Origin: an uncultured Bacilli bacterium
Lineage (GTDB): Bacteria; Bacillota_I; Bacilli_A; RF39; UBA660
DNA length: 64,000 nt
Direction: 5' to 3'
NCBI GenBank assembly: GCA_934167875.1
Contig: CAKPMC010000006.1
Span: forward strand, 16,646-80,645
Numbering within the stretch: the first letter of the stretch is position 1; each line of letters begins with the position of its first letter. Under the pieces are notes generated by a model. That model searched no databases, was not told the origin of the DNA, and saw only the letters and a program-made list of their open reading frames with translations. The position numbers and the translations under genes were made by a program. Below, piece after piece: positions 4,518 to 14,158 of the stretch.

Positions 4518-5714
4518 ATGGTTGAAAAATTAGAACAAATTTATTTAATGGATAAAAACTTTAAATTTGTCCAAAGAACTAAAGACAAATTTATCTATAA
4601 GTATGAAGATAAAGAATTAGAACAATTAAATATTCTAGAACTTTTATTTTCTGAAGAAGAACAAAGAATTAAAAAAATAGATATCTATACTTTTTCAGGA
4701 TTAGAACCAATAGAAACTATGCATATTATAAGGGGTACAGACAATATCACTGAGGTTGATTATTATCCTAATGGATATGAGAATCTAACTATAGATAAAA
4801 TAAGCGAGCCTTATAGTATTAGTGTTTATCTTCAATTTAGTGAATTAGATGGTAATAATTACCAAGAATACAAAGAAATAGAATTGGTAAAAAAGGGTCA
4901 TAAAAAACACAAAGTATTATCTCAAATTCCATTAGAAGAAAATTACTATATTACTAAAGATAGTAGAATTCATTATATTTCTTCTAATAGTATAAGCAAA
5001 CTAAAAAGATTAACAGAGTTTTTAGTACCATCAATAAAAGAGATAGAAAAAAGATTATTTAATCCAGAAAGTATTGAATCATTAGAGAATGAAGATGATA
5101 ATGATCAAGCTATATTAGAACCTATTGATGGAACATATCCTGAACAAATGTATATATATGATCGTAATTATAATTTATTAGGAAAAAAATCTGGTGCTAT
5201 AGTATATCAAAATACTGAAGATGAAATTAAAGAGTTAGAAATTTATTTTACTGACGATAAGAGCAAATTAAAAGAAGTAAGATTAATTGATTATAGTGAT
5301 TCATATTTAGAAGGAATCAAAGTAAAATCTAAACGTAGAATAATTAGATTTTTGGTTACTAAAGATAATAAAATAAATGTAACATTATGTAATCGTAGAA
5401 AAGAACCAATGATAATAAATAGTCACACTATAGATAGAAATAATATTGCTGCTAGAGCCATAATAAATCAAAGTAATGAAATAGAAAAATTAGAAGTAAA
5501 AATCCAAAATCAATTAGGAACTTTCAATTTAACTAAATCACCTACTAAAAATATGGAATTTATTGATAAAAATAATGTTAGTTATCTAATTTCCTCAAAT
5601 TCTTTTGAACAGTTTAGAGTGTTTATAAGATATGTACCATTTATTCTAGGAGCATTAGAAAACAAATTAATCCCAGTTGACGAAGAAAAAAGTCCTATAT
5701 TAATTAAAAAGTAA
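4518..5714 (+). CDS. hypothetical protein (398 aa), first gene of the accessory segment
   Basis: Long ORF with RBS GGGAG. No motif recognised. Confidence 0.35.
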   Translation: MVEKLEQIYLMDKNFKFVQRTKDKFIYKYEDKELEQLNILELLFSEEEQRIKKIDIYTFSGLEPIETMHIIRGTDNITEVDYYPNGYENLTIDKISEPYSISVYLQFSELDGNNYQEYKEIELVKKGHKKHKVLSQIPLEENYYITKDSRIHYISSNSISKLKRLTEFLVPSIKEIEKRLFNPESIESLENEDDNDQAILEPIDGTYPEQMYIYDRNYNLLGKKSGAIVYQNTEDEIKELEIYFTDDKSKLKEVRLIDYSDSYLEGIKVKSKRRIIRFLVTKDNKINVTLCNRRKEPMIINSHTIDRNNIAARAIINQSNEIEKLEVKIQNQLGTFNLTKSPTKNMEFIDKNNVSYLISSNSFEQFRVFIRYVPFILGALENKLIPVDEEKSPILIKK

Positions 5715-5977: not shown

Positions 5978-6087
5978 GGTATAAATAAAAGATTTATTTT
6001 AATGATAAGTGCAGTAGAAAGAAAAGTAAAAAATATAAATTAAAACAAATTTCATTAAAACCACTTGTTAAAAAGATAAAACAAAAA

Positions 6088-6513
6088 ATGTATCTTCCAG
6101 AGATGACAGTAGATGATTTCTTTACTACACAAGAAGAAAGAGATTTAAAAAGTAAAGAACACGTTGAAATGGTTGATATTAATGATATATCAGATTTTCC
6201 TAATCATCCTTTTAAAGTTATAGTAAATGAAGATATGTTAAATATGAGTAAGAGTATTGAAAAATATGGGGTGTTAGTACCGGCTTTAGTTAGACCAAAA
6301 GAAAATGGTAAATATGAAATGATTTCAGGTCATAGAAGAAAGAAAGCATTAGAAATTTTAGGAATACAAGAAATAGAAAAGATTACTGATAAATCTAGAG
6401 AAGAATTAATATTAACTAAAGAATCTGATAAAACTTACTGGTTTAATGGAAATTTAACTTATAATATTACTTTTAGGCTGAATATTTGCAATGACCATTA
6501 TTGGAGATATTAA
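6088..6513 (+). CDS. ParB/Srx-like N-terminal nuclease-domain protein, probably truncated
   Basis: VPALVRPKENGKYEMISGHRRKKALEILG matches the ParB N-terminal domain GxRR box. The C-terminal 30 aa is low-complexity with no HTH domain. Confidence 0.45.
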   Translation: MYLPEMTVDDFFTTQEERDLKSKEHVEMVDINDISDFPNHPFKVIVNEDMLNMSKSIEKYGVLVPALVRPKENGKYEMISGHRRKKALEILGIQEIEKITDKSREELILTKESDKTYWFNGNLTYNITFRLNICNDHYWRY

Positions 6514-6552: not shown

Positions 6553-7140
6553 TTAATAATTACTTTTTAATCTTTTTTGAATAATTTGGCTTTTTCGTTT
6601 CGTTTCATTTGTTAAATCTTCTAATGTGAATCCAAGCAATTGTGAAAGATATAGTATTTCTACTAATAATTTTTTTACAGTTTCTTTTTCAAGCTTTTGG
6701 ATTAAATCATTTCCTAATTTATAAAGTGTCAGAAATGTTTCTATAATATCTTTGTTACTTGTTGCAGAAAAATTTTCACTTAAAGATACATTTGTAATGT
6801 TACAAAAATATAATATCATAAATAAACAATCAATATATTCTTCTAATATATGATTTTTTTCACCAGTTTGATTTATTGACCAAAATTTAAAACATCTTGT
6901 TTCGTTAGCTAGTTCCCCAAATTCTACCAATAATTCAAGTTTATATTTTTTTATAATTTCAGGAGATTTGATATCAAATTGTAATGAAAATAAATCATCT
7001 AAATATTTTGTTTCTTTATATATTTCTTCTATGTTTAGCATAAATGTCACTTCTTTCTTAAAATCTATAGATTGATTATGAGTATTGTTAATTAATCGGA
7101 TTATATGATGTATTTTATCATTAAAATTAGTATTTAGCAA
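6553..7140 (-). CDS. all-alpha NTP-pyrophosphatase, dimeric dUTPase-like (tentative)
   Basis: Pattern ...LELLVEFGELANE..CFKFW....EEYIDCLFMILYF resembles dimeric dUTPase/MazG-like motifs, which are typical of phage and plasmid cargo. Confidence 0.3.
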   Translation of the reverse strand: MLNTNFNDKIHHIIRLINNTHNQSIDFKKEVTFMLNIEEIYKETKYLDDLFSLQFDIKSPEIIKKYKLELLVEFGELANETRCFKFWSINQTGEKNHILEEYIDCLFMILYFCNITNVSLSENFSATSNKDIIETFLTLYKLGNDLIQKLEKETVKKLLVEILYLSQLLGFTLEDLTNETKRKSQIIQKRLKSNY

Positions 7141-7430
7141 CTAACTGATGTTGTAACATACATCTAATGGAGATTTTGCTATGTTTCAAGATAATACTAA
7201 CTTAAACTTGTATAAATTATTTTATGATGTTGCTAAATAGGAAAGTATTTTAAATGTTGTTCAAAAAAATAATTGATATTACGGACACGGATTTAGAAAT
7301 TGAACATTATATCAATTAAATACCATAATAATAGAAAAGGGAGTTAAGATGACTTCCTTGTTTTATTGTAAAATAAGTGTTAAAATAAGTTACTAGAAAA
7401 CATTTAGTTTTACTTAGTTTTATTTAGTGT

Positions 7431-7463
7431 TATTTAGTAAATTTGTGGCCGGCATGTGTGTCC
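7431..7463 (+). repeat. cassette-boundary core, R-type copy 1 (TATTTAGTAAATTTGTGGCC...)
   Basis: Direct repeat shared with 7940, 9201, 9694 and 11228. Confidence 0.6.
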
Positions 7464-7571
7464 TATGCGTGTTCACAAAAAAAAGACCTATCAGTTAAGT
7501 GCTAGGCCACGAATTTTTGCTGATTGGACACGAATTTATTGGTTGATATGAGTCGTAATAAGGAGGGCATT

Positions 7572-7843
7572 ATGTTTAAATTAGAATCAAAATATACACC
7601 TAGTGGAGATCAACCACAGGCAATTAAGGAATTAGTAGAAGGAATTAAAGAAGGAAAAAGAGGCCAAGTTTTACTAGGGGCAACGGGGACAGGAAAAACT
7701 TTTACGATTGCTAATGTAATTAAAGAAGTTAATAAACAACCCTAGTACTTGCCCATAATAAAACACTTGCTGGACAACTTTATTCAGAATTAAAAGAATT
7801 GTTTCCAAATAATCACGTATGTTACTTTGTTTCTTATTATAGA
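7572..7843 (+). pseudogene. uvrB: uvrB 5' fragment A (promoter-proximal ~90 codons, frameshifted and truncated)
   Basis: [55 protein letters not shown] is near-identical to the N-terminus of intact UvrB at 11361. A 1-nt deletion near 7741 gives an in-frame stop at 7745, and homology continues in another frame to ...TTCTTATTAT at 7840. Confidence 0.8.
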
Positions 7844-7877
7844 AAAATCATAAAACCCCTTTTATTTCAATAATTTT

Positions 7878-7977
7878 AGTTTTATTTAATCCCTCGAAAA
7901 TACCATAAAAAGACTAAATAAAACTGGATAATGAAATGTAAATTTGTGGTCGAAATTCGTATTTATCCGTGTCTACT
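7878..7977 (+). repeat. L-type boundary: 13-bp-stem hairpin (AGTTTTATTTAAT...ACTAAATAAAACT) plus core AAATTTGTGGTCGAAATTCGTAT
   Basis: Near-identical 75-nt segment at 9655-9730. Confidence 0.6.
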
Positions 7978-8056
7978 AAAAAATTGAAAATAACGATAAT
8001 ATGTGATATATTATTAATCAATAAAAAGGGACTTTTTTAACATTGATGATTAAGGA

Positions 8057-9202
8057 ATGATTATAATGATTAAATATTATAAAGAACTAGAAAATAGATT
8101 GAATTATTATTTACCATTAGTAGATATTCAAGATAAAGGGAAAAAAGTATTATTTGATTATAAGACACCATTTTCATTTGTAGAAAAATATGAAGATTTA
8201 TTTAAAAATAGTGAATTTCTAATTACTATTTTTAAAGGGTTTAATATTGATGAATGGTTTCGAAATAATATATATATTGATTATGATAATGCCTGTTCTA
8301 TTTCTAGTGAATTTGAAAGTATAGAAGAAGAAATTTATTGCATATTAGAAGAATATGGGAAAATAAATTTTTCTTCTAGAGCAATAGAAAATTATTTATA
8401 TCTAATTAAAAGATTATCCATTTTATATATAGATTTATTTCCAAATAATAAACAATATTATACTTCACTTAATAATACAATAGTTGCAGCAATAGAAGAA
8501 TTAAAAAAATACAATACTATTCACTATATTCCAGATAAAGTAGATAATCTATATCAACCAGATGCATGGTATATAACACCTAATGGTTATTTATATAATG
8601 CCGGAAAATATGGACATAACGGTAGGGATTTAACGTTCAATTATAATAAAATGAAATATTTTATAAATAATAATGAAAATATATTAGACAATCATAAAAT
8701 TTCAAACGGATATTTAAATCTGTCTAAAAAAATAAAAGAAAATGGTTATATATCTGCAGGACAATTTAAGGTGTTTTTAAATTATATAAGTCAACCAGCC
8801 TATTTAGAGTCAATTAATGGAATACCAGTAACGAGAGAAAACCATATAATCCAATTAATTTTAGGTATAATTAATGCTCAAGCATGCTTTTATAGATTTT
8901 TTGAAGATTTATTTATATATACTGAAAAACCAGAAAATGAAATACATAAAATAATAAATTGGACTAATGATGATATAGGAGATGTATTAGTTAGGTGCTG
9001 TGGTTTTCATAAAATTGAATCAATGCTGGAAAAAACTATTACAACTAGTTGTATAAATTATGAAAATGAGTTGGAGGAATATATAAATAATGGGTGGAAC
9101 ATAGTATTTATACCACCATTTATTATTGATAAAGATAACCATTGTCTAAAAGAATATCCAGAAGATTTTTTAGTTATAAAAAGATTGTTGAAAACTATCT
9201 AG
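8057..9202 (+). CDS. hypothetical protein (381 aa), cargo of cassette 1
   Basis: Own TTGAAA-17-TATATT promoter at 7985-8013. No recognisable domain. Confidence 0.45.
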   Translation: MIIMIKYYKELENRLNYYLPLVDIQDKGKKVLFDYKTPFSFVEKYEDLFKNSEFLITIFKGFNIDEWFRNNIYIDYDNACSISSEFESIEEEIYCILEEYGKINFSSRAIENYLYLIKRLSILYIDLFPNNKQYYTSLNNTIVAAIEELKKYNTIHYIPDKVDNLYQPDAWYITPNGYLYNAGKYGHNGRDLTFNYNKMKYFINNNENILDNHKISNGYLNLSKKIKENGYISAGQFKVFLNYISQPAYLESINGIPVTRENHIIQLILGIINAQACFYRFFEDLFIYTEKPENEIHKIINWTNDDIGDVLVRCCGFHKIESMLEKTITTSCINYENELEEYINNGWNIVFIPPFIIDKDNHCLKEYPEDFLVIKRLLKTI

Positions 9203-9240
9203 TTTTATTTAGTAATTTGTGGCAAAATTCATCCTCATCC
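9201..9240 (+). repeat. cassette-boundary core, R-type copy 2 (AGTTTTATTTAGTAATTTGTGGCAAAATTCATCC)
   Basis: Direct repeat of the 7431 and 11213 elements. Confidence 0.6.
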
Positions 9241-9324
9241 AAAAAAAGACATATTTTTAATGTTATGAAAATAGATTAGGACACGAATTTGTTGGTTGAT
9301 ATGAGTCGTAATAAGGAGGGCATT

Positions 9325-9633
9325 ATGTTTAAATTAGAATCAAAATATACACCTAGTGGAGACCAACCACAAGCGATAGATGAGTTAGTTAAAGGAATAG
9401 AAAATGGCGAAAAACACCAAGTTTTACTAGGTGCAACTGGAACTGGAAAAACTTTTACGATTGCTAATGTAATTAAGGAAGTTAATAAACCAACCTTAGT
9501 ACTTGCCCATAATAAGACACTTGCGGGACAACTTTATTCAGAATTAAAAGAGTTGTTTCCAGAAAATCATGTATGCTATTTTGTTTCTTATTATAGGAAC
9601 CCATCGAAAACTATCTTATTCAGTACCTTTTAG
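9325..9633 (+). pseudogene. uvrB: uvrB 5' fragment B (in-frame 103-aa truncated copy retaining the Walker A GATGTGKT)
   Basis: [90 protein letters not shown], then diverges at the same TTCTTATTAT point (9594) as fragment A. Confidence 0.8.
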
Positions 9634-9730
9634 ATTTATTTAGTACCTCAAAGATACTATAAAAAGACTAAATAAAACTAGATAATAAAATGTAAATTTG
9701 TGGCCAAAATTCGTATTCATTCGTATTTAT
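9632..9730 (+). repeat. L-type boundary: hairpin (AGATTTATTTAGT...ACTAAATAAAACT) plus core AAATTTGTGGCCAAAATTCGTAT
   Basis: Parallels 7878-7977. Confidence 0.6.
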
Positions 9731-9822
9731 AAAAAATAATAAATTTAAACTAATATATTTTTATTATTTTTTTTGTAAGATTAAAGTTATAATAATAAAA
9801 ATATGATAAAATAATATGAGAG

Positions 9823-10533
9823 GTGATTTTAGTGAAATTAAATGATATTGAACAATTAACAAATGAAGAAATAGAAAAGATATATGAAAAATGTTTAGAA
9901 TATGCAAATAGAATTAAAAATCCAGATTTAAAGGAATGTTGTTTAGAAATTTATAATGATTATAAATCAAAACTTATAGCAAAACCAGCTACTGGAGATC
10001 CATGTCATCATTTTTTTAGAGGTGGTTTAATATATCATAGTTATTGCGTAACCAGAAATGCTATTATGATTGCAGAATTGTATGATTATATAAAATTAGA
10101 TATGGACTTAATAATATTTGGTTCATTATTACATGATATAGGAAAGACAAATGATTATAAAGATTTTGATTCTATAGAAAAAGGTGAAACAGGAATACTA
10201 AGTAGTGGTTCATATATGGTGGGTCATTCATACGAAGGAACTCATATTGTTGAAAATTATTTAGAAAAATATAATTTAGAAGATAAGTTTAAATATCAAG
10301 TTTTACATATGATAGGAAGTCATATGAAAGAATTTAGTGAATGGGGAGTATTAACATCACCAAAAATGTTAGAAGTAATAGTAATTAACTATGGTGATTC
10401 AATGGATGCTAGATTAGATAAAACAAGAAATGGTATTAATAATTCTGAAAAAGGTGAATTATATTATAATGAAAATCAAACGGCAAAATTTTATAAATCA
10501 ATAAATCCATATTACGAAAATGATAATTTATAA
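9823..10533 (+). CDS. HD-superfamily phosphohydrolase (YhaM-like HD domain), cargo of cassette 2
   Basis: HHFFRGGLIYHSYCV ... LLHDIGK ... HSYEGTH ... SHM ... D: an HD metal-binding motif series. Confidence 0.55.
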   Translation: MILVKLNDIEQLTNEEIEKIYEKCLEYANRIKNPDLKECCLEIYNDYKSKLIAKPATGDPCHHFFRGGLIYHSYCVTRNAIMIAELYDYIKLDMDLIIFGSLLHDIGKTNDYKDFDSIEKGETGILSSGSYMVGHSYEGTHIVENYLEKYNLEDKFKYQVLHMIGSHMKEFSEWGVLTSPKMLEVIVINYGDSMDARLDKTRNGINNSEKGELYYNENQTAKFYKSINPYYENDNL

Positions 10534-10663
10534 TTAAAATAAATATGCATCAAAAAGAAAAATTATAAAATATAAAAAAATATTCAAGAAGAAAATTTAA
10601 CTAATGATGGAATTAACGAGCTGATTATGGAACATTATATTTTCATAAATAAAGGAGTAAAAA

Positions 10664-11086
10664 ATGCAAAAAAAATTAAGTTTTATGACCTTGAATGATG
10701 TAAATATTGGAATAAGTAAAATTGAATTAAATAAATGGGATTTAATAATTATTGATAAATCTGGTAAATATTGTTTAAAAATCTGTGTGCAATATAATTG
10801 GAAAGATATCAATAACATAAAAACTGGTCAAAAACAAGAAATTGATTTTAACGAATATTGTTTAGCTGAAAACAATGAATCTGCTTTGATTTGGCCATCT
10901 AATTCCTATGTAGAAAAAATAAGTGATGATTCTATATGTTTTAATTTGGAATTTAAAAATTTATCTAATTCGACGCATTATATGAATAAAAGAGGTTGTT
11001 TTGATATTCAGTTAAATTCTCTTGAGGCTAAGGTTTTTATTGATTATAAAGATGCAATAGATGATTCTGTCATATATAATCTATAA
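10664..11086 (+). CDS. hypothetical protein (140 aa), cargo of cassette 2
   Basis: ORF with RBS AAAGGAG. No motif recognised. Confidence 0.35.
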   Translation: MQKKLSFMTLNDVNIGISKIELNKWDLIIIDKSGKYCLKICVQYNWKDINNIKTGQKQEIDFNEYCLAENNESALIWPSNSYVEKISDDSICFNLEFKNLSNSTHYMNKRGCFDIQLNSLEAKVFIDYKDAIDDSVIYNL

Positions 11087-11212
11087 AAAAAAGAAGTTGT
11101 TATGATAGAAAATAAAATAATGTATAATAATATATTGGAAGCATTAATTTTGCTTCCTTGTTTTATTATCAAAATAATGTTAAAATGAATTATTGAGAAA
11201 GACTTTAATTAC

Positions 11213-11360
11213 TTATTTTTATTTAATAAATTTGTGGCCGAAATTCGTATCCAAGAAAAAAAGATACATTTTTGATGCTGTAAAAATAGGTTAGGATACG
11301 AATTTTTAAAAATAGGATACGAATTATCTGGCTGGTAGTAGTCATAGTAAGGAGGACCAT
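11213..11360 (+). promoter_or_regulatory. uvrB upstream region: R-type core copy 3 plus dyad AAATTCGTATCC-N43-GGATACGAATTT(+GGATACGAATT), RBS AGGAGG
   Basis: Seen directly in the sequence. The same half-site GGACACGAATTT precedes both uvrB fragments (7526, 9279). Confidence 0.5.
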
Positions 11361-13319
11361 ATGTTCAAAATTCATTCAAAATATACACCGAGTGGTGATC
11401 AACCCCAGGCAATTAAGGAATTAGTAGAAGGTATTAAAGAAGGAAAACGCGACCAGGTTTTACTAGGAGCAACGGGAACAGGAAAAACTTTTACGATTGC
11501 TAATGTAATTAAAGAAGTTAATAAACCAACCCTAGTTTTAGCTCATAATAAAACACTTGCGGGACAACTTTATTCAGAATTAAAAGAATTGTTTCCTAAC
11601 AATCACGTATGCTATTTTGTATCCTATTATGATTATTACCAACCAGAAGCCTATGTTCCATCTACAGATACCTATATAGAAAAAGATTCATCTATTAATG
11701 ATGAAATTGATGAACTTCGTCACTATGCAACAAGCTCTCTTTTATCTTATGATGATGTCATTGTAGTAGCCAGTGTAAGTTGTATTTACGGTATTGGTGA
11801 AGTAGAAGAATATCGAAACAAAATGCTAAGCATAGGAGTAGGAGATAATGTAGAAAGAAACACTATCATGACGAAACTAGTAGAAATGATGTACGAAAGA
11901 AATGATTTTGATTTTAAGCGTGGTACCTTTAGAGTAAAGGGTGATGTTCTAGAAATCATACCAGCCTATGAAAACACAAAAGGGTATAGAATTGAGTTTT
12001 TTGGTGATGAAATAGATAGAATTAGTGAAATAGATTCTCTAACTGGAGCAGTTATTCAAAATAAAAAAACATTAACTATTTTTCCAGCCAGTCACTTTGT
12101 AACTAGTGATGAAAAACTAATAGAGGCAGTGAAAAGAATTAAACTAGAATTAGCTGATAGGATTCAATATTTTAAAGATAATAATAAACTACTAGCAGCA
12201 GAAAGAATAGAACAGCGTACAAACTATGATATAGAAATGTTAACTGAAACAGGATTCTGTCGTGGTATTGAAAACTATTCTCGTCATATGGCTTTACGTG
12301 GTGAAGGAGAAACCCCAACTACTTTAATGGATTTCTTTCCAAAAGATTTTTTATTAGTAATAGATGAATCCCATGTAACACTTCCTCAGGTAAGGGGAAT
12401 GTATAATGGTGATAGAGCTAGAAAAATGAATTTAGTAGAGTATGGCTTTAGACTACCAAGTGCACTAGATAATAGACCATTAAAATTTGAGGAATTTGAG
12501 AAAAAAATCAATCAAGTTATTTATGTATCAGCAACTCCAGGAGATTACGAATTAGAAAAGACTAGTAATCAGTTTATTGAACAAATTATTCGTCCAACTG
12601 GACTTCTTGATCCAACAATTGAAGTAAGACCAAGTAAAGGTCAAATTGATGATTTAATTGGTGAAATTAAAGCTAGAATTGCGAAAAACGAACGTACTTT
12701 AATAACCACTCTAACAATTAGAATGGCAGAAGAATTAGCGAATTACCTAAAAGATATTGATATTAAAGTGGCATATTTACATAGTGAAGTAAAAACATTA
12801 GAAAGAATGCGCATTATTAGAGATTTAAGATTAGGTAAATATGACTGTATTGTTGGAATCAATCTATTACGTGAAGGAATTGATATACCAGAAGTTAGTT
12901 TGATAGCAATTATGGATGCTGATAAAGAAGGATTCTTGCGTAGTGAAAGAAGTTTAATTCAAACAATTGGTAGATGTGCTAGAAATGCTAGTGGTCATTG
13001 TATTATGTATGCTGATAAAATAACAGACAGTATGGATAAGGCTATTAAAGAAACAATGCGTCGTCGTACAATTCAGGAAGAATATAATAAAGAACATGGT
13101 ATTACGCCACAGACAATCAAAAAAGAAATTAGAGATTTAATTAGTAATGTCGATGACAACAAAGAAAAACAAACATCTCCTAAGAAGAAAGATAAAAAAG
13201 AATTATTAAAAATGATAGATGAAATCGAAGAATCTATGAAACAAGCAGCAAAGGAATTAGATTTCGAACGTGCTATGCAGTTAAGAGATGCATTATTTGA
13301 ATTAAAGAGTGAATTATAA
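11361..13319 (+). CDS. uvrB: excinuclease ABC subunit B
   Basis: Full-length 652 aa with helicase motifs, beta-hairpin region [10 protein letters not shown], and C-terminal UvrB-UvrC interaction domain ...[10 protein letters not shown]... Confidence 0.95.
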
Positions 13320-14158
13320 TGAAAAAGTTTAAGAAAATATATATAGAAATCACGAATATCTGTAATCTTAATTGCTCTTTTTGTAGTAAAGATAATCGTA
13401 TAAAAGAAAGTATTTCGCTAACGAATATGGAAGAACTATTAAAGAAAATTAATGATTATACGGATTATGTTTATCTTCATGTAAAAGGTGAACCATTACT
13501 ACACCCAAAGTTAAAAGAAATCTTAGATTTATGTGAAAAATATCATAAAAAAGTAAATATTACGACGAATGCTACACTTCTAAAATCCAAAGAAACAATC
13601 CTATCTCATACAGCTATTCGCCAAATTAATTTATCAGTACATAGTGAAAATCAAGAAAAAAATTATTTAGAAGAAATCTTTGAAGTAACTGATAAACTGA
13701 AAGAAAAGAATATTGTTTATCGTTTTTGGACTATGAATGATAATAATCTAAATAAAAAATCAACAGAATTAGTGGAAAAAATAATAAATCATTACAAGTT
13801 GTCCCCAGAAATTGTGGAAAAAATAAAAACAGACAACAATATTAAAATAAATAGTAACACTTATGTGAATAAAGCTAATCAATTTGTTTGGCCTAATATT
13901 AATAATGATTATTATAACGATAAAGGATATTGTTACGCTTTAAAAGATCAATTAGCTATTTTAGTAGACGGTACTGTTGTACCATGCTGTTTAGATAGTG
14001 ATGGCATCATTAATTTAGGAAACATTTATAGTAATACTATAGAAGTTATTATAAATAGTAGTCGCTATCAAAAAATGAGAAGTGGTTTCTGCAATCGTAA
14101 AGTAACTGAAGAACTATGTAAACACTGTAGTTACAAAGAAAGATTTGACATTAATTAA
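13319..14158 (+). CDS. radical SAM / SPASM-domain enzyme (279 aa)
   Basis: CNLNCSFC (CxxxCxxC) near the N-terminus plus GEPLL. The C-terminal Cys-rich region PCCLDSDG...CKHC is SPASM/twitch-like. ATG overlaps the uvrB TAA. Confidence 0.65.
   Translation: MKKFKKIYIEITNICNLNCSFCSKDNRIKESISLTNMEELLKKINDYTDYVYLHVKGEPLLHPKLKEILDLCEKYHKKVNITTNATLLKSKETILSHTAIRQINLSVHSENQEKNYLEEIFEVTDKLKEKNIVYRFWTMNDNNLNKKSTELVEKIINHYKLSPEIVEKIKTDNNIKINSNTYVNKANQFVWPNINNDYYNDKGYCYALKDQLAILVDGTVVPCCLDSDGIINLGNIYSNTIEVIINSSRYQKMRSGFCNRKVTEELCKHCSYKERFDIN

Follow-up and report, generated by a model that had tools for sequence, protein, structure and literature searches.

The stretch of DNA analysed here, hereafter the window, comprises 64,000 nucleotides from an uncultured Bacilli bacterium (GTDB lineage Bacteria; Bacillota_I; Bacilli_A; RF39; UBA660; GenBank assembly GCA_934167875.1, contig CAKPMC010000006.1, positions 16,646 to 80,645 of the forward strand). 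It contains the DNA-repair gene uvrB, whose leader and codons 1-90 are present three times in direct orientation, as found by alignment, repeat analysis and tblastn. The array formed in this way is flanked by ftsEX and an M23 peptidase gene on one side and by uvrB itself on the other, and its uvrB parts are as follows.

7572-7840, + strand: uvrB 5' copy A, codons 1-90, frameshifted (alignment, tblastn)
9325-9594, + strand: uvrB 5' copy B, codons 1-90 (alignment, tblastn)
11361-11630, + strand: codons 1-90 of the working uvrB gene, a chimera (alignment and identity matrix)
11631-13319, + strand: chromosomal remainder of uvrB, codons 91-652, 96% identical to that of the related locus L152

The repeat is 270 bp long and the three copies are 82-90% identical to one another at the nucleotide level; a 1-nt deletion reduces copy A to a 73-aa open reading frame (ORF). 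In copies A and B the match to uvrB ends after ...TATTAT (codon 90), where the next bases are AGAAAA and AGGAAC, respectively. A boundary of about 130 nt is conserved after both (7874-8002 versus 9628-9756, 81% identical), and the cargo that follows it differs: a 381-aa ORF (8057-9202) after copy A, an HD protein (9823-10533) and a 140-aa ORF (10664-11086) after copy B. The array is no assembly artefact, since independent assemblies of other samples (L163-L165, L167, L168) reproduce the order of copy A, cargo, copy B, cargo and uvrB at 99.6-100% identity. The triplication and the different cargoes had both been reported in an earlier note on this DNA, and they hold. The note had also described the copies as differing by scattered substitutions; they are mosaics produced by homologous recombination as well.

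For comparison we used uvrB loci from species genomes (n = 80), metagenome contigs scanned for an exact 21-nt motif, and strain variants retrieved through exact-protein look-ups; numbers preceded by L (L039, L152, L178, for example) are the labels of the compared loci. The window lies on a metagenome scaffold of 94.6 kb whose host is a low-GC, Erysipelotrichaceae-like bacterium, and the nearest species genomes encode a UvrB that is 72-78% identical to that of the window. The boundary regions, called J, were sought by nhmmer with a J model, and integrases by a hidden Markov model (HMM) built from the family integrase.

The same structure was found in other bacteria. Among the 80 species-genome loci, that of an Acutalibacteraceae metagenome-assembled genome of the class Clostridia (L039) contains a uvrB fragment that ends at the same codon, followed by about 95 nt, a motif, a 289-aa cargo, the motif again, a new leader and the intact uvrB. 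This motif, called C, is AAATTTGTGGYCNAAATTCGT; it ends the conserved boundary J after each truncated fragment and also lies about 130 nt before each start codon, in degenerate form before copy B. Its core, AAATTTGTGGYC, occurs 7 times in the window at up to one mismatch, against 0.83 occurrences expected by chance. The exact 21-nt form that flanks the cargoes, AAATTTGTGRYYNAAATTCGT, was returned from 70 metagenome loci. In 33 of these, with hosts of 23 to 57% GC, it stands beside uvrB: it either follows, by about 95 nt, a fragment whose last residue is one of 88-92, or precedes a uvrB start by 110-161 nt. All of the truncated uvrB fragments that we collected (26 of 26, from 24 loci) break at codons 88-90. 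The motif is missing from the leftmost fragments, whose promoter is short and native, whereas every copy further right has an element-type leader with the motif. We call the two units that lie between the window copies E1 and E2; their parts are listed below.

7841-9594, + strand: unit E1, made of J, motif C, the 381-aa gene, a degenerate right arm and copy B
7841-7975, + strand: E1 left (P') arm, with J (nhmmer with the J model, E 3e-37) and its inverted repeat TAGTTTTATTTA..TAAATAAAACT, motif C at 7940-7960 and a further ATCCGTGTC unit
8057-9202, + strand: E1 cargo, a gene for 381 aa of unknown function; a promoter-like site of its own lies at 7984-8012
9200-9324, + strand: E1 degenerate right arm, with a TAGTTTTATTTAGT repeat, motif C in decayed form (TAATTTGTGGCAAAATTCATCC), a single GGACACGAATTT unit and a ribosome-binding site
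9595-11630, + strand: unit E2, made of J, motif C, the HD gene, the 140-aa gene, terminator, promoter, motif C, leader and 5' copy; its core is 9595-11360
9595-9693: J of E2
9694-9714: first motif C of E2
9823-10533: HD hydrolase gene of E2
10664-11086: 140-aa ORF of E2
11137-11157: terminator of E2, followed by a promoter
11228-11248: second motif C of E2
11294-11326: GGATACGAATT units of E2, followed by the leader

The uvrB starts of the window are not native. The native alleles of close relatives (L152_F, L124_F, L120_F) are 95-99% identical to one another and at most 91% identical to any window copy. Identity between the window and L152 is 96% in the rest of uvrB, 88% in codons 1-90 and 66% in the leader, with a step near codon 90. 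To judge from these alleles, none of the three window copies is the native one.

The interval between ftsEX-M23 and uvrB, whose comparison across relatives had been suggested as a check on a fixed ancient duplication, varies in its unit content and is not the same everywhere. In the related species L003 and L004 the site is empty, ftsEX-M23 directly adjoining uvrB. The near-isogenic L162 is without E2, and L172 and L174 are without E1. In L167 and L168 an older unit to the left of copy A, called E0, is complete on its left, and L163 retains more of its integrase. The HD protein of E2 is found, identical, in two other genomic backgrounds: one (L169, L171) in which alr precedes and lgt follows the locus and in which uvrB, in its remaining part, shares 72% identity with the window, and one with gidAB-noc-mscL upstream (L170, L173). 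From J to the leader, E2 is 98.5-100% identical to the window sequence in L167, L169, L170, L171 and L175; in L169 it stands alone between the native fragment and uvrB, and in L173 two E2 units lie in tandem with 3 differences in 2036 nt; in some cases E2 adjoins larger elements. Likewise, the units of L039 and L150 are 88-98% identical while their chromosomal uvrB genes are 61-76% identical. Given identities so far above those of uvrB, integrase-less units have moved horizontally between distant hosts and landed at the same site. Further content is found in L171, which has a unit with thymidylate kinase, UDG, a MazG-like protein and nucleoside deoxyribosyltransferase, and in L182, which has a single unit with a major facilitator superfamily transporter.

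Homologous recombination has also shaped the array. The 5' copy that follows E2, which we call delta, is 99-100% identical in L169, L170 and L173 and 93-96% identical in L167 and L171, with a switch at codon ~87. An insertion that duplicates the host's own codons 1-90 was rejected as a general rule on the grounds of this 93-100% identity across three backgrounds and of the position of the switch. In L162 the working 5' copy is mostly of the copy-B type, up to about codon 55, and of the delta type after it. This chimera indicates that E2 was lost there through homologous recombination between the repeats and not through precise excision, and L162 was rejected as a clean empty site for E2. The working copy of the window is of the delta type for about 9 codons and then follows a different, native-like allele, gamma, which implies a similar later recombination event.

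Recombinase genes lie beside uvrB in relatives. L027 has a gene for a tyrosine integrase of 430 aa whose end is separated from the downstream uvrB by about 300 nt, and a variant of motif C lies between the two. Homologues of this integrase are located directly upstream of uvrB in L027, L085-L090 and L178-L181, the last being low-GC versions. The module consists of two adjacent, slightly overlapping tyrosine recombinase genes, the first coding for 395-403 aa and the second for 428-431 aa (L085:8812-11293; L178:8796-11296; L176:8800-11287). L085-L089 have, besides the recombinases, genes for an HTH_17 protein, a relaxase and a NikA-like protein. In L088 a uvrB fragment that stops at codon 90 comes after the integrase, and after it a second, larger element with ParA, ParB_N and RepA_N. 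Among the motif loci, the integrase HMM matched over the full or nearly the full length in L105, L109 and L098, up to the contig ends in L103, L118 and L126, with internal truncation in L152 and L156, and as pseudogene pieces in L097. It matched nothing in the 64-kb window, L039, L150 or L155. The integrase has Phage_integrase and SAM-like domains and a weak Arm-DNA-bind_4 match, and NCBIfam gave only generic matches of the Xer and integron-integrase type, far below the cut-offs. These recombinase pairs presumably catalyse the integration. In some elements (L176:11280-11455; L109; L126) the pair is inverted and stands at the left end; the integrase gene then points toward the truncated uvrB fragment, and 12 nt separate its stop codon from the left-arm motif C. 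As a separate observation, the uvrB promoter supplied by Lachnospiraceae-type elements contains a LexA/Cheo-box-like sequence, GAACAAATGTTTG (L027:1372-1385; L085 ~11325), which is also present in the native promoter of L039 (L039:8443-8456); such elements seem to preserve SOS control of uvrB. No LexA-like box was seen in the clade of the window.

In the window itself, the vestiges of such an element lie to the left of copy A.

6088-6513, + strand: truncated ParB_N gene, a relic of E0 cargo (Pfam ParB_N)
6553-7140, - strand: dimeric dUTPase gene inside the E0 remnant (Pfam dUTPase_2, E 8e-27)
7266-7319, + strand: relic of the 3' end of a tyrosine integrase gene, 17 codons and the stop codon, KIIDITDTDLEIEHYIN (tblastn)
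7337-7386, + strand: start of the E0 right arm, a terminator at 7337-7359 (terminator scan) and then a promoter-like TTGTTT-17-TGTTAAAAT (read from the sequence)
7405-7537, + strand: E0 right (P) arm, with TAGTTTTAYTTAGT repeats, motif C at 7439-7459 and GCCACGAATTT and GGACACGAATTT units at 7506-7537 (repeat and motif scans)

The 17-codon relic matches the C-terminal end of the truncated L152 integrase at 82% identity (tblastn, E 8e-4). A 219-aa truncated Phage_integrase ORF ends at the equivalent position in strain L163, and so does the intact integrase of L178. Moreover, positions 7320-7575 resemble the sequence downstream of the L178 integrase, the terminator, promoter, TAGTTTTAYTTAGT repeats, motif C and ACGAATTT units being nearly alike. 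The layout of terminator and promoter is repeated at 11144-11205, and the conservation of motif C at 7439-7459 is limited to its left half. Positions 6070-6354, at the ParB_N relic, are 94.7% identical to a ParB_N-Spo0A_C gene within uvrB-inserted elements of L124 and L112. Because of the integrase relic, the L163 and L178 integrases that end at the same place and the ParB_N match, copy A is to be read as the right end of the older, decayed element E0, borne by that element and not a native uvrB start. The same series of remnants, from the intact L178 form through the 219-aa L163 integrase to the window relics, indicates that E0 was derived from an integrase-bearing element by deletion. It had been stated before that no integrase is present in or near the array and that the mobilising activity must act in trans or have been lost. 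Indeed no recombinase is encoded, so that the first statement is right for genes and wrong for remnants, and the relic at 7266-7319, with the truncated integrase of L163 and the intact ones of L178-L181, bears out the second.

No further J or uvrB fragment that could mark the left end of E0 was found in the window by tblastn and nhmmer. Since the window holds just two copies of J, this end has been lost there; it is present in L167 and L168 (four copies each), and deletion or replacement removed it in the window strain. Between the M23 peptidase gene and the E0 remnant lies a 398-aa ORF (4518-5714) with no Pfam or PADLOC match, whose place is taken in L167 and L172 by other genes, together with the leftmost uvrB fragment and ParA. 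The dUTPase gene is found in the same place, between the truncated ParB_N gene and copy A, in L167, L168, L172 and L174.

With regard to E1 and E2, no remnant of a mobility gene was found in either, and Pfam gave no conjugation or mobilisation gene (relaxase, coupling protein) in the window units. Both arms of E2 are intact and identical to the copies in other species. The 381-aa protein of E1 has 267 homologues, none of which has a functional name given by its source, and in a PADLOC defence scan the HD protein alone among the cargo gave matches, which were weak and Cas3-HD-like. The cargo is often related to nucleotides, as with the dimeric dUTPase and the HD hydrolase of the window and the four genes of the L171 unit (L171:3778-6180). 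In other species, homologues of the 381-aa protein (75-86% identical) and a 304-aa gene are located just upstream of the native uvrB fragment, outside recognisable units (L182:6001-8101; L139, reverse-complemented, 8571-11778; L167:917-1831). Such a neighbourhood may be the source of the E1 cargo; alternatively, the genes seen there may represent older units whose left fragment was lost. On the far side of the array, a radical SAM/SPASM gene (13319-14158) overlaps the uvrB stop codon by one base; L002 and L152 have this gene too, and L003 and L004 lack it between uvrB and uvrA.

The arms of these units are built from a repeated sequence. Motif C consists of two tandem units on the top strand (AAATTTGTG and AAATTCGTG/A), the opposite strand has one or two more ACGAATTT units, 55-75 nt ahead of the start codon, and the left arm is made of C and one more unit. 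The last four bases of the unit vary between element families and agree across all the sites of one family, including those of the left arm, which lies outside any uvrB leader. Because of this family-wise agreement, and of the weak arm-binding domain match of the integrase, the AAATTTGTGRCC-N-AAATTCGTRT motif beside every cargo and the ACGAATTT units of the leader are most likely arm-type integrase-binding sites, as predicted from sequence; this role would fit better than that of a uvrB operator or a leader RNA. No Rfam match was obtained in 7000-11800 at E<=1, and the J regions fold no better than shuffled sequences (z -0.9 to 0).

The bases right after ...TATTTTGT in the delta copies track the right-hand neighbour: TTCTTATTAT is followed by AGGAACC before the J of E2, ATCATAGTAT by AGTAACC before the J of a ParA-type element, and TTCTTACTAT by GATTAT before the chromosomal remainder. 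Because the partner-specific bases start right after TTTGT, strand exchange probably takes place at or just after this sequence, which puts it some 10 nt upstream of the point where homology visibly ends. Over the following 10 nt, the left end of the element imitates uvrB, and in some families this imitation creates an in-frame TAA or TAG at codon 89. The common break described previously is thus real in that copies A and B both lose homology at codon 90, but the crossover itself would lie upstream of it.

Three further candidates were discarded. The motif match upstream of uvrA (15613), considered as a promoter-like copy, is merely an extended -10 element. The three motif C matches in viral contigs of IMG/VR (L082-L084) represent one sequence, inside an apparently coding stretch with no uvrB near it, and were treated as chance; we take this stretch to read HQICGQNSCVNPEHL, which is HNH-like in look. 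As to a phage origin, a tblastn search of the UvrB N-terminus against 50,697 phage records gave host-type matches that run past residue 90 or are cut by the record ends, and none ending at residue 90.

Altogether, it is very likely that the array was formed by the tandem accretion, at one attachment site in uvrB, of three decayed site-specific integrative elements that lack an integrase and resemble cis-mobilisable elements (CIMEs), and that it was later remodelled by homologous recombination. The parent elements would have encoded two adjacent tyrosine recombinases, and their circular form would have carried a terminator, a promoter, a leader and surrogate uvrB codons 1-~87 ahead of the attachment site. 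Recombination with the chromosomal ...TAYTTTGT (codons ~84-86) would push the resident promoter and 5' fragment upstream, while the element's own 5' copy would be fused to the rest of uvrB, leaving the gene intact. A second element would then enter the new junction and give the order fragment, cargo, fragment, cargo, gene. All three window units would have lost their recombinases, E0 keeping its 17-codon integrase and ParB relics, E1 the 381-aa gene and E2 the HD and 140-aa genes, and homologous recombination between the 270-bp direct repeats then deletes units and makes chimeric 5' copies. The integrase-less units presumably travel with a neighbour or are helped in trans. Serial integration with replacement of promoter and N-terminus had been proposed in the earlier note, and it is upheld by the 26 common breakpoints, the distinction between native and element leaders, the empty sites, the variation in units and the adjacent recombinases of relatives.

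Several observations weigh against this interpretation. No circular form or attP junction was observed. The array encodes no recombinase and the 64-kb window none of this family, so that activity in this genome is unproven. The arm-site role of the motifs is drawn from their position and repetition only, and the degenerate right arm of E1 has no motif C within 4 mismatches. E2 has no integrase remnant at all, and its decay is assumed, not shown. Finally, L039, L150 and L155 each have a pair of uvrB 5' copies that agree at 93-96% within the genome (from about codon 11) and at only 70-80% between genomes, despite cargo and arms that are 88-98% identical; simple integration does not predict this. 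Gene conversion is a likely source of this within-genome similarity; in these three loci the host's own codons 1-90 may also have been duplicated.

Another view of the small units is that they are dedicated non-autonomous cassettes, each with a complete ~600-bp attachment region, moved in trans by the recombinase pair of larger elements in the manner of an integron platform. One- to four-gene units would then be the mobile entities, a minority of larger elements would carry the recombinase pair, and the 270-bp fragments would shuffle the array by homologous recombination. The behaviour of E2, nearly identical (98.5-100%) in three genomic backgrounds, alone at the site in L169 and paired in L173 with its 3 differences in 2036 nt, is what such cassettes would display, as are the many compact units of one to four genes with clean ends, well conserved arms and no recombinase remnant (E1 and E2 of the window; L039/L150, L155, L139, L141, L171, L182). 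Yet the family displays a graded series of decay, from full-length and truncated integrases to pseudogene and 17-codon relic, and the same data can be accounted for by a composite that was mobilised in cis with an adjacent element and then lost this helper, neighbours being indeed seen in L170 and L171. Moreover, homologous deletions between repeats are documented at this array, and no excised circles were observed. We therefore regard dedicated cassettes as unlikely, though worth keeping in mind.

The repeated motifs raise a distinct question, since motif C and the GGAYACGAATTT units could serve to regulate uvrB, as an operator for transcription or as a structured 5' leader, and be merely carried along with the element's uvrB promoter. 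The units do lie between promoter and uvrB start, the inverted repeat that they make up has outer 4 nt that are family-specific but matched (ATCC/GGAT, GTAA/TTAC, CGTGG/CCACG), and L027-type elements retain a LexA-like box upstream. However, every element has motif and unit at its left end as well, where they follow the fragment by ~95 nt and precede unrelated cargo and where no uvrB leader is made, and the native uvrB promoters of empty sites and leftmost fragments are without both. Together with the lack of an Rfam match and the weak arm-binding domain of the integrase, this makes a regulatory role of the motifs improbable. A further conceivable origin of the repeats does without site-specific integration: the 5' region of uvrB would have been duplicated locally in tandem, with unequal crossing-over, and unrelated genes would have entered afterwards. 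This agrees with the fact that homologous recombination between copies does delete units and create chimeras. It is contradicted by the same breakpoint and flanking motifs across hosts of 23-57% GC and different Bacillota classes, by identical units in species whose uvrB genes are 72% identical, and by the recombinase genes adjacent in relatives, and we give it hardly any credence. Accretion of site-specific elements is the reading that we retain.

In the literature, we found no description of uvrB as an integration target used by integrative and conjugative elements (ICEs), integrative and mobilisable elements (IMEs) or prophages; full-text coverage was incomplete and an earlier mention is possible. 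We propose that uvrB codons ~84-90 are the attachment site of a widespread element family in gut Bacillota (Erysipelotrichaceae-like Bacilli, Lachnospiraceae, Acutalibacteraceae and others). A core DNA-repair gene would thus serve as a hotspot without being inactivated, each element rebuilding the promoter and the first ~90 codons; as a consequence, the N-terminal part of UvrB, with the ATPase Walker A motif, and its regulation would be of foreign, mosaic origin in many strains. Compact, near-identical, integrase-less units found across species offer a tractable case for studying the spread of non-autonomous elements. For annotation, the short 'ResIII/DEAD' ORFs upstream of uvrB are to be read as att-site scars that mark island boundaries.

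How does this array compare with known systems? Like integron cassettes, its units are small, hold one or two genes in most cases, have no recombinase of their own and are lined up in order at a single place in the chromosome, with a content that varies by strain. However, no intI or attI lies beside the uvrB array, which is bordered by ftsEX-M23 and uvrB, its units have their own promoters, and their boundaries are ~600-bp composites that include a gene fragment and not 60-140-nt attC palindromes, J folding like its shuffles. The uvrB array is not an integron. Tn554 has two adjacent tyrosine recombinases and inserts at one specific site in one orientation; the uvrB elements likewise have a recombinase pair, a single site and one orientation, whereas target and end structures differ. 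In the case of SXT, Hochhut and Waldor reportedly observed in 1999 that the element restores its target gene with a new promoter and 5' coding sequence, and tandem arrays are known in the SXT/R391 family. The likeness to this family is one of mechanism only, a tyrosine recombinase acting at the 5' end of a housekeeping gene. What defines its members is a near-identical Int together with integration in prfC, at the 5' end of this conserved gene (PMC2791158). By comparison, the target here is uvrB, the hosts are Bacillota instead of Gammaproteobacteria, the replaced coding segment is much longer, and small integrase-less derivatives predominate; no close integrase relationship is indicated, this being said without direct comparison.

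The closest parallel is found in CIMEs and in the accretion of ICEs and IMEs related to ICESt1 of Streptococcus thermophilus, which also form composite arrays of decayed and functional elements and spread integrase-less units horizontally. In the published scheme, an element integrates site-specifically, loses its integration and transfer genes while keeping attL and attR, and is joined by a next element at an att site by the target gene; cis-mobilisation of the composites is part of it as well (PMC5704250). This scheme describes the uvrB array, where the integrase is absent except for the 17-codon relic and attL/attR-like arms are retained, both in E2 and only the left one intact in E1. As in ICEs and IMEs, the target position is fixed and marked by direct repeats (codons 88-90 in 26 of 26 fragments); an own integrase by the att site is found in L027, L085-L090, L098, L105 and L178-L181, and not in the window. 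Streptococcal CIMEs mostly use 3' ends of genes, whereas the uvrB target is a 5' end, so that each unit must carry a promoter and ~87-90 codons. The uvrB repeat, with 270 bp of coding sequence and a leader, the two tandem tyrosine recombinases of the parents and units as small as 0.7-2 kb are further differences. The uvrB system therefore goes beyond the textbook case in its long surrogate gene start, its recombinase pair and its abundant, very small integrase-less units that are nearly identical across species.

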